Of a stretch of DNA of 37,900 bases, positions 1,219 through 2,303 are shown in pieces. The notes under the pieces were generated by a model. That model saw nothing but the letters and a program-made list of their open reading frames with translations. It had not been told where the DNA came from and searched no databases. This DNA is from an uncultured Candidatus Saccharibacteria bacterium (GTDB taxonomy: Bacteria; Patescibacteriota; CPR2; UBA1875; CAIMLA01), in NCBI GenBank assembly GCA_964471065.1, contig CAYYEV010000002.1:1-37900 (forward strand), written 5' to 3'. The number at the start of each line of letters is the position of its first letter. The stretch's first letter is position 1. Made by a program: the position numbers and the translations under genes.

Positions 1219-2303
1219 ATGGAAACATATTTTACGTTTGCCAACATGCACAAAGCTTATATAGACTGTCGGAAAAGAAAATCAAAAACTTTTTATCATT
1301 TGAAATTTTCTTATAATCTTGAGGAGAATTTAATGCTCCTGACAAAAGAATTGCAAGAAAGAACCTACAAGCCCGGTCAATCTATCGCCTTTATTGTACA
1401 AAAACCAAAAATAAGAGAAATTTTTGCAGCTGATTTCCGAGACCGAGTCGTGCATCATCTGTTATATAACTACCTGTCGCCGATTTTCGAGAAAGTCTTT
1501 ATTTATGATTCCTGGGCATGCCGAAAAAACAAAGGAACGCACGGCGCCATGCTGCGAATAAAAAAATTTGCGAGCGGAATCGAGAGAGAGAGAGAGAGAG
1601 AGAGAGAGAGAGAGAGACGAAAGCCGCCGGCTTTTATCTCAAAATGGACATCAAAAGTTTCTTCACAAGTATTGACAAACAGATTCTTTATGGACTCATT
1701 GAGAAAAAAGTTAAAAACGAAGAGATATTGTGGTTAACAAAAACCATAATATTCCACGACTGCGCCCATGACATACCACCTCGGATACAAAGTCAGCCTA
1801 GTCTTTTTGAAAAACTCCCTAAGGAAAAGTCGTTATTTACGGTTCGATATGGCAGAGGTTTGCCAATCGGTAACCTAACGTCACAGTTTTTTGCCAATGT
1901 TTATCTAAACGAACTCGACCAATTTGTAAAACACAATCTAAGAGCCAAATGTTATGTACGTTATGTAGACGATTTTATTATCTTGTCTGCTGATCGAAAA
2001 ACTCTCGAATCTTACCGTGCGAAAGTGAGCGAATATATTGCCACGCAATTATTGTTGACCGTGCATCCTGACAAACAATTTATCGCTCCAGTTCAAAATG
2101 GGATCGACTTTGTTGGTTATTTTGTGAAACCTGATTATATTTTAATTCGAAAAAGAGTCGTTGGCGAATGGCGGCGGAGAATGGACGGCAAAAATGAAAA
2201 GTTAAAAAAACAAGCCTTTATCTCCTATATGTCGCATTCGATGTGGGCAAATGCTTATTTTTTGAGAAAGAGAATGGTAAAAAAACTAAACCCCGATAAA
2301 TAG
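1219..2303 (+). CDS. DGR reverse transcriptase, split over two frames as sequenced (1219-1737 and 1518-2303). The frame change lies in the 1518-1737 overlap that contains an A7 run and (GA)18.
   Basis: The N-terminal part reads METYFTFANMHKAYIDCRKRKSK...CRKNKGTHGAM. The C-terminal part reads LKMDIKSFFTSID (motif 2), LPIGNLTSQFFANVYLNELD (the DGR-specific I/LGxxxSQ motif) and YVRYVDDFII (YxDD). Removing one GA unit or adding one nt upstream fuses the two parts into about 360 aa. Confidence 0.85.
1582..1617 (+). repeat. (GA)18 dinucleotide microsatellite inside the RT gene
   Basis: 36 nt of perfect GA repeats. They encode (Glu-Arg)6 in the upstream frame and (Arg-Glu)n in the downstream frame. 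The tract is a polypurine/polypyrimidine mirror repeat. Confidence 0.98.

Follow-up and report, generated by a model that had tools for sequence, protein, structure and literature searches.

Simple sequence repeats (SSRs) that gain and lose units can switch bacterial genes on and off. Such contingency loci include the CT/GA repeats of oipA and sabA in Helicobacter pylori and the poly-G and tetranucleotide tracts of Campylobacter, Neisseria and Haemophilus. In phasevarions the switch lies in a phase-variable mod methyltransferase gene, and in reversible mutators tandem repeats toggle mutL or mutS. Diversity-generating retroelements (DGRs), which rewrite part of a target gene through a dedicated reverse transcriptase (RT), are to our knowledge the only prokaryotic system of targeted protein hypermutation. 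Here we describe a perfect (GA)18 tract inside the RT gene of a DGR, in a 37,900 nt stretch of DNA (the whole stretch is called the window below) from an uncultured Candidatus Saccharibacteria bacterium of the candidate phyla radiation (CPR, Patescibacteria; contig CAYYEV010000002.1, positions 1 to 37,900 of the forward strand). The tract divides the RT gene between two reading frames, and we think it likely that slipped-strand phase variation gates the enzyme, with the window carrying an OFF allele.

The simple-sequence repeats of H. pylori are documented (PMC4081817). The DGR surveys and reviews and the full-text literature that we covered, a scope outside which the CPR DGR paper of Paul et al. 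(2017) lies, yielded no account of a microsatellite, frameshift, slippage or phase variation of a DGR RT. Phase variation by SSRs is well known and so are DGRs; a conserved microsatellite switch inside a DGR RT is, as far as we have found, a new combination.

The DGR and its divided RT gene

The RT gene is spread over two frames of the forward strand. One open reading frame (ORF 922/1219–1737, in the frame of 1219 and with a METYF start) carries motif 1 as CRKNKGTH at 1518–1541 and reads across the tract to a stop codon at 1735–1737. The part of it that precedes the repeat (1219–1581, frame 1) fits the homologue consensus MxTxFTFxNLYxAYxDCRK at its N-terminus. The other ORF (1518–2303) lies in the −1 frame, and its part beyond the repeat (1618–2303, frame 0, stop codon 2301–2303) encodes MDIKSFF at 1644, IGNLTSQ, YVDD and the thumb, as judged from these motifs and from Pfam and bRT matches. 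The (GA)18 tract between them (1582–1617) is the sole dinucleotide run of at least five units in the window; whichever frame is used, it encodes (Glu-Arg)n, and the frame of the RT depends on it. The coordinates of the tract and the placement of the motifs in two frames agree with the preliminary description of this locus.

One open RT of 360 or 362 amino acids results from any of three edits: the loss of one GA unit, the gain of two, or the addition of one A to a run of seven (A7) at 1560–1566. We term the window allele, which has an offset of +2, OFF, and alleles with n = 17 or n = 20 ON. Deletion of a single GA had been claimed to fuse the two parts, and it does give one open protein of 360 amino acids that is matched by Pfam RVT_1 (E = 1.6e-16) and by the Bordetella DGR bRT (PDB 8ub7, 8ub7_A; E = 1e-42). 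The bRT match covers both halves and places an insert of about 13 residues exactly at the repeat. Unlike the canonical bRT, the window RT therefore has a (Glu-Arg)n insert of at least about 13 amino acids between motifs 1 and 2, derived from a length-variable microsatellite that usually breaks the frame.

The surrounding DGR is complete, with a target gene bearing the variable repeat (VR), a bAvd gene, a template repeat (TR) and the RT, whose parts lie in two frames in the window allele. The order target-avd-TR-RT corresponds to the 'B3' architecture typical of CPR DGRs (PMC5758913). The start of the window cuts the target gene, of which the 3′ end remains (2–223, forward strand like all parts of the element); it encodes a C-type-lectin-like Lcl_C/DUF1566 domain (Pfam Lcl_C, E = 1.2e-12) and contains the VR (93–222). 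A bAvd-like accessory variability determinant gene lies at 319–696 (Pfam bAvd, PF22296, E = 8.3e-14) and the TR at 950–1079. TR and VR are direct repeats of 130 nt, 90% identical, and all 13 of their 13 internal mismatches fall at TR adenines. In its homologous RT, its bAvd, its adenine-only TR/VR differences and its C-type-lectin-like target the locus resembles the bRT-Avd-TR/VR system of Bordetella phage BPP-1. Exact-protein look-ups with the window Avd, the C-terminal part of the RT and FtsW returned no match.

A separate GC hairpin, ACCGC-CGAAG-GCGGT, lies at 251–265, 28 nt past the VR and the target stop codon, and is followed by a T run at 274–279. It may be the terminator of the target gene, a DGR target-recognition hairpin, or both.

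The GA tract in related RT genes

A comparison of orthologous RTs in related CPR genomes, suggested in the preliminary description, found the tract in 46 loci, with variable length. These were collected with a frame-blind DNA pattern, (GA)7 followed after a gap of 10–40 nt by ATGGAYATHAARWSNTTYTT (encoding KMDIKSFF), in which the upstream frame was ignored and which gave no chance match in 100 shuffles of the window. Twelve of the loci are in species-representative genomes (metagenome-assembled genomes of Berkelbacteria and other Patescibacteria, from several laboratories) and 34 in metagenomes of the Joint Genome Institute; the source habitats of the tract-bearing bacteria are lakes, groundwater, peat and digesters. 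Viral contigs gave no match in the same scan, and there is thus no sign of a phage-borne RT clade. A pure GA tract is present in 46 of 46 loci, with n from 7 to 24 (median 14), in the loop between motifs 1 and 2, and it starts in most of them 63 nt past the Cys codon of motif 1. The shared codon position of this tract among 46 independent loci, and the lack of shuffle matches, argue that (GA)18 did not arise by chance.

The closest RT homologues are 60–72% identical to the window protein. The (Glu-Arg)n insert had been called unusual, which holds in the limited sense that it is specific to this clade; (ER)3–5 or (RE)n stands in frame between motif 1 and YLKMDIKSFF in 13 of the best 120 homologues. 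Two of these 13 (P0047 and P0059) are truncated proteins that begin or end at the repeat. In some relatives a decayed tract leaves the RT fixed in frame, as with GAGAGACAGAC in L048, the closest full-length homologue.

The A7 run, ATA-AAA-AAA in frame 1, had been put forward as a second way to restore the enzyme, by programmed −1 ribosomal frameshifting or by transcriptional slippage. As stated, the run has the form of a proper slippery heptamer (A_AAA_AAA) when read in the upstream frame, and either a −1 shift or one extra A there opens the RT frame. The mechanism itself fares poorly against the related loci. An A/T run of at least six within 45 nt upstream of the tract occurs in just 4 of the 46 relatives, and the nearest relative, L004, has AAAAACA. 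The shifted product would read RIKKICERN, in which ICERN replaces the conserved F-A-x-x-(L/I)-E, with loss of the near-invariant Phe and of the Glu, both of which line up in 120 homologues. As far as the tract, the unshifted window peptide GTHGAMLRIKKFASGI instead agrees with the consensus of the family, GTHxAMLRLxxFAxxL, and its FASGI is identical in lineage L021. Known runs that support transcriptional slippage are about 9 nt, longer than A7. Because A7 is not conserved and the unshifted peptide matches the consensus, the frame change is best placed in the GA tract; we judge the run incidental and regard recoding at it as exceedingly improbable.

In 13 of the 46 loci motif 1 and MDIKSFF share a frame (offset 0); their offset is +1 in 20 loci and +2 in 13. 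When distinct lineage/length alleles are counted, 12 of 42 are in frame (29%, confidence interval 16–45%; P = 0.62 against one-third). Lineages were clustered on a 950 nt flank (300 nt upstream and 650 nt downstream of the tract), and 11 of them contain more than one contig. The number of GA units varies within nine of these 11. Eight show 99–100% flank identity, with n of 11/12/20/20, 16/20/24, 13/14/15, 9/10/14, 15/23, 18/23, 11/12 and 17/18; in the ninth, a pair with n = 11/17, the flanks are just 96% identical. ON and OFF alleles occur together in six lineages. Near-identical flanks with differing n indicate that the tract mutates far faster than the neighbouring sequence, as contingency repeats characteristically do.

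That the break in the window is a mundane miscall, the true allele being (GA)17, (GA)20 or A8 with the RT intact, deserves consideration for this allele. Repeats are error-prone in library PCR, and the window holds another broken gene. Its ftsI (a penicillin-binding protein transpeptidase; 19524–21216, reverse strand) is split over three frames (21216–20863, about 20930–19832 and 19835–19524) at two repeat-free sites, and the RT break and both ftsI breaks have the same sign, fitting a missing base. A single-base error inside the tract would spoil its perfection, however, and the tract is perfect. All other genes checked in the window are intact. Among the 46 relatives about 70% are out of frame, in at least six independent projects. 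Differences of 4–9 units between contigs are beyond PCR stutter, and independent assemblies arrived at the same n (three times for n = 8, twice each for n = 11 and n = 20). The earlier caution thus stands for the window allele, where a miscall is conceivable given the ftsI breaks, and falls as a general explanation, since so many relatives, handled by many laboratories and assemblers, are also out of frame that sequencing error is not needed. We consider a miscall confined to the window rather improbable, and a wrong n in this assembly would leave the locus a contingency repeat all the same.

The ftsI break itself was mapped with the Pfam Transpeptidase profile, of which positions 2–198 and 211–298 match in different frames; the junctions are outside repeats and long homopolymers. 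The neighbouring genes of its dcw (division and cell wall) cluster, mraZ, mraW, murF, mraY, ftsW, murG and ftsQ, are intact. The breaks are either real lesions or assembly indel errors.

If the element were a decaying pseudogene, with the DGR dead and the frameshift one lesion of several, an out-of-frame RT gene would be expected, and so would further damage. Neither half has another stop or frameshift, in the window or in the 33 OFF relatives. In all 33, the N-terminal part is open for at least 103 codons ahead of motif 1 and the C-terminal part, wherever the contig allows, for 214–246 codons to its stop. Across lineage representatives the ratio of non-synonymous to synonymous substitution rates (dN/dS) is 0.049 for the N-terminal and 0.052 for the C-terminal part; the OFF–OFF pairs give 0.047 and 0.055, no different from ON–ON pairs. 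The retroelements have also been active. TR/VR pairs with adenine-only differences are present in most loci, OFF loci included. In one lineage (L007, L009, L022 and L035) with identical RT flanks, the VRs of the n = 11/12 contigs differ from those of the n = 20 contigs at 27–28 sites, 23–24 of them at TR adenines, and a single TR-adenine site distinguishes the n = 11 contig (OFF) from the n = 12 contig (ON). This turnover of VRs beside identical RT flanks points to recent retrohoming in a lineage in which most of the dominant alleles are OFF. Decay is therefore a very unlikely account of the locus.

Equally slight is the probability that we give to a split but functional RT, in which an N-terminal fragment would assemble with a C-terminal fragment restarted at the conserved Met of MDIKSFF. 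Many alleles of offset +1 have a stop in the N-terminal frame (TAA within GAT-ATT-AAA) 8 nt past this ATG, an arrangement that fits termination-reinitiation. In the window, however, about 90 nt separate the ATG from the N-frame stop downstream of it, and a Shine–Dalgarno sequence at the proper distance is lacking. The cut would also come one residue before the strand of the catalytic Asp, and tract-free relatives have the Met too.

In a structure predicted with AlphaFold2 for P0002, a natural homologue that is in frame (pLDDT 92.9), the repeat is part of a single unbroken helix (residues 107–132) after motif 1, and the same loop of other relatives has insertions of 30–50 residues. Many ON lengths should be tolerated, since each of the three frames of (GA)n encodes Glu-Arg and is free of stops, and added units merely lengthen a surface helix. 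The longer inserts lie in frame just before the GA tract (L022, 6564–5890, reverse strand; also P0022, P0028, P0033, P0037 and P0038), as in DRSCHSELVEESPMNMGTGIRQRSFGCNLRMTAE; they resemble translated palindromic repeat elements, and the loop appears to be an insertion hotspot.

Because the tract is conserved, varies in length and falls at random with respect to frame, and because both RT halves are intact with dN/dS of about 0.05, we take it, on these sequences, to be a contingency repeat that is both conserved and hypermutable, and not a pseudogene or a general artefact of assembly. Like the SSR contingency loci, it is a perfect intragenic repeat with a unit that is not a multiple of three, and n varies among otherwise identical strains; ON and OFF forms coexist in a lineage, about one-third are in frame, and the gene is otherwise under purifying selection. 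Those loci, in contrast, gate surface antigens, restriction-modification enzymes and glycosyltransferases in host-associated pathogens, whereas in the clade of the window, CPR bacteria that are free-living or episymbiotic, the gated gene would be the RT of a hypermutation system. The tract also differs in having been kept among RTs whose identity has fallen to about 60%, and in its coupling to a hairpin beside it.

The hairpin beside the tract

A GC-rich hairpin of 4–7 pairs with a 3–4 nt loop begins 1–3 nt past the tract in most lineages, often with a T run next to it. In the window it is GAAAGCC-GCC-GGCUUUU (1619–1635, seven pairs, 3 nt loop), directly 3′ of the tract; the stems vary among lineages and include GGCGC/GCGCC, GGGGC/GCCCC, GGGGCC/GGCCCC, GGCC/GGCC and AAGCC/GGCUU. 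MAFFT alignment of the post-tract segments followed by RNAalifold predicted no structure, as differences in loop length spoil the alignment. The hairpin was therefore scored in each sequence separately, by its energy relative to shuffles and to other windows of the same gene. The window hairpin has a free energy of −6.8 against −1.9 for shuffles (P = 0.01) and is the most stable of 188 same-length windows of the RT gene. Hairpins better than composition-matched shuffles (P ≤ 0.05) occur in 16 of 27 tract-bearing lineages, and in 18 of 27 the segment ranks among the lowest 5% when windows of equal length from the same gene are compared. None of seven relatives without a long tract has a comparable hairpin (against 16 of 27, Fisher P = 0.006). 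The amino acids encoded at this site differ (TKAAG, GALRQ, GAAAP, RGLRP) while the pairing persists, so constraint appears to act on the nucleic acid. A simple terminator scan of the window did not flag the hairpin, as only T4 follows the stem. Slippage requires pausing and dissociation, and the hairpin is possibly a pause site that promotes slippage in replication, or possibly a stimulator of slippage at the RNA level.

The second of these possibilities leads to a different account of the locus, in which a 2 nt slip on the GA repeat, by RNA polymerase or by the ribosome, is stimulated by the hairpin and tract length is a rheostat of RT level. The P- and A-site tRNAs would re-pair perfectly after a 2 nt shift, there is no stop in any frame, and the distribution of frames is exactly neutral. 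The hairpin adds to this case, being conserved with varied stems 1–3 nt past the tract, lost together with it, and paired even as its encoded amino acids vary between lineages. Known recoding sites share the design: in dnaX (A_AAA_AAG) and in insertion sequence (IS) transposase genes, a repeat is likewise followed by a close stable stem-loop, and two overlapping frames serve one protein. The present tract differs from them in being a long dinucleotide repeat, in requiring a shift of +1 or +2 according to the allele, and in showing change of length in the DNA. We know of no established case of dinucleotide slippage recoding in bacteria. A significant hairpin is missing from 11 of the 27 tract-bearing lineages. 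Other GA tracts in the genomes of relatives are non-coding, one of them with its hairpin on the 5′ side, and a translational role cannot explain these, whereas a role at the DNA level can. As length change in the DNA is directly observed and is sufficient, we hold bypass at the RNA level to be unlikely.

A candidate switch of DGR activity and other GA elements

In the phase-variation mechanism that we favour, the tract would occupy a permissive helix or loop between RT motifs 1 and 2 in a Berkelbacteria-like clade of CPR bacteria (Patescibacteria). Slipped-strand mispairing during DNA replication would add or remove GA units, and each step would move the C-terminal two-thirds of the RT, catalytic motifs included, into or out of frame. 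Cells would thereby flip, heritably and reversibly, between a DGR-competent (ON) and a DGR-silent (OFF) condition; the window allele would regain its RT of 360 or 362 residues with one unit fewer or two more. The GC-rich hairpin would be part of the module and might favour slippage by making the polymerase pause. A slipped-strand switch was the first suggestion of the preliminary description, and it now has strong support from the range of n among relatives, from identical contigs that differ in n, from the coexistence of ON and OFF alleles and from the purifying selection on the gene.

Several observations weigh against this mechanism. The length polymorphism is that of relatives, while n in the window is the value given by its assembly, and the two ftsI breaks away from repeats mean that this assembly may contain indel errors. 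The fraction in frame equals the neutral one-third, and nothing in it shows selection for ON; the same fraction is also expected if bypass at the RNA level made frame irrelevant. The hairpin, just 3′ of the tract, is where a stimulator of ribosomal frameshifting would sit. A lineage whose tract is short (n = 8) was OFF in each of its three samples, a slow pace for a switch. ON alleles span n = 9–19, and none of the nine loci with n ≥ 20 is in frame, which may be chance ((2/3)^9 = 0.03, with loci that are not independent) or may mark an upper limit on the helix length that is tolerated. That OFF alleles make no functional RT and that switching is reversible within clones are presumed here. Switching, if it occurs as proposed, would plausibly be adaptive, as a way to freeze a useful VR and to limit the cost of mutagenesis.

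Second-order control of variability has precedents in the phasevarions and reversible mutators, where, as we propose here, a hypermutable repeat toggles an enzyme that alters many phenotypes or the supply of mutations. The toggled RT differs in that it drives adenine-specific diversification of one ligand-binding protein, and not global methylation or the genome-wide mutation rate. A microsatellite switch in the RT would be a simple answer to the problem of restraining a DGR while keeping a useful variant: most cells would be frozen and a minority would explore. The logic of contingency loci, known mainly from host-adapted pathogens, would then operate in Patescibacteria of lakes, groundwater, peat and digesters. 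We predict that 'inactive DGR' calls in CPR metagenomes are often OFF alleles and not dead elements, and that protein-based DGR surveys will under-count such RTs or mis-annotate them as split genes or pseudogenes. GA length could serve as a ready marker of DGR state in time-series metagenomes.

More tentatively, and with a confidence that stops a little short of even, we suggest that (GA)n and its hairpin form a selected and conserved evolvability switch that makes DGR hypermutation stochastic and heritable. In some lineages it would stand beside a second length-polymorphic GA element, a promoter-to-terminator unit upstream of the target gene, so that mutator and target would both be under microsatellite control; or, as a more novel variant of the same suggestion, OFF alleles might be decoded by hairpin-stimulated 2 nt slippage.

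This second GA element is non-coding, about 190 nt long and conserved in four lineages (L022, 8680–8330, reverse strand; L002, 3990–4360; L041, 3520–3900; L034, 7110–6800, reverse strand). Its parts are, in order, a promoter-like TTGATGTATAAT, AGGAGGG, a hairpin CGAGTTCGAAGTTCCGAACTCG with a compensatory variant in L034, (GA)10–14, CTCTCC, and a terminator hairpin with a T run, the stem of which covaries. In L022 and L002 the DGR target gene lies about 190 nt downstream of it. The number of GA units is polymorphic within lineages (14/14/12 and 11/12). Rfam has no family for the element, which could be a small RNA or a leader that tunes target expression.

Other repeats of the same kind were noted in the 329 kb of sequence surveyed, in which every long simple repeat is GA/TC except an A15 in L002. 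At a contig end in L043 (18–59, oriented), another RT gene contains, at a different loop (..ERERERETAPCGRGIPIGNLTSQ..), a (GA)21 tract with a GC hairpin after it; this second RT was sought in the sister contig L016 and not found there. The same two contigs differ at the 5′ end of an ORF of 734 amino acids with fn3-like sequence, which has (TC)14 in L016 (7011–7038) and (TC)11 in L043 (1080–1101, oriented).

Downstream of the RT, the window encodes a large secreted fn3/Pur_ac_phosph_N protein (2375–4450, forward strand; assigned with Pfam). The same neighbour is found in L047, L048, L050, L053 and L055, and these fn3/purple-acid-phosphatase-N proteins directly 3′ of the RT, 690–1100 amino acids long in the window and the five relatives, appear to be a conserved part of the neighbourhood in this DGR clade. 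The start codon of the fn3 protein is preceded in L048/L049, at a distance of 7 nt, by a (GA)7 run. Among the DGR-type RT homologues, proteins of about 500–610 amino acids from Omnitrophota and Elusimicrobiota (P0098, P0099, P0104, P0105, P0112, P0116 and P0119) carry a fused MutS domain I (Pfam PF01624), a mismatch-recognition domain.

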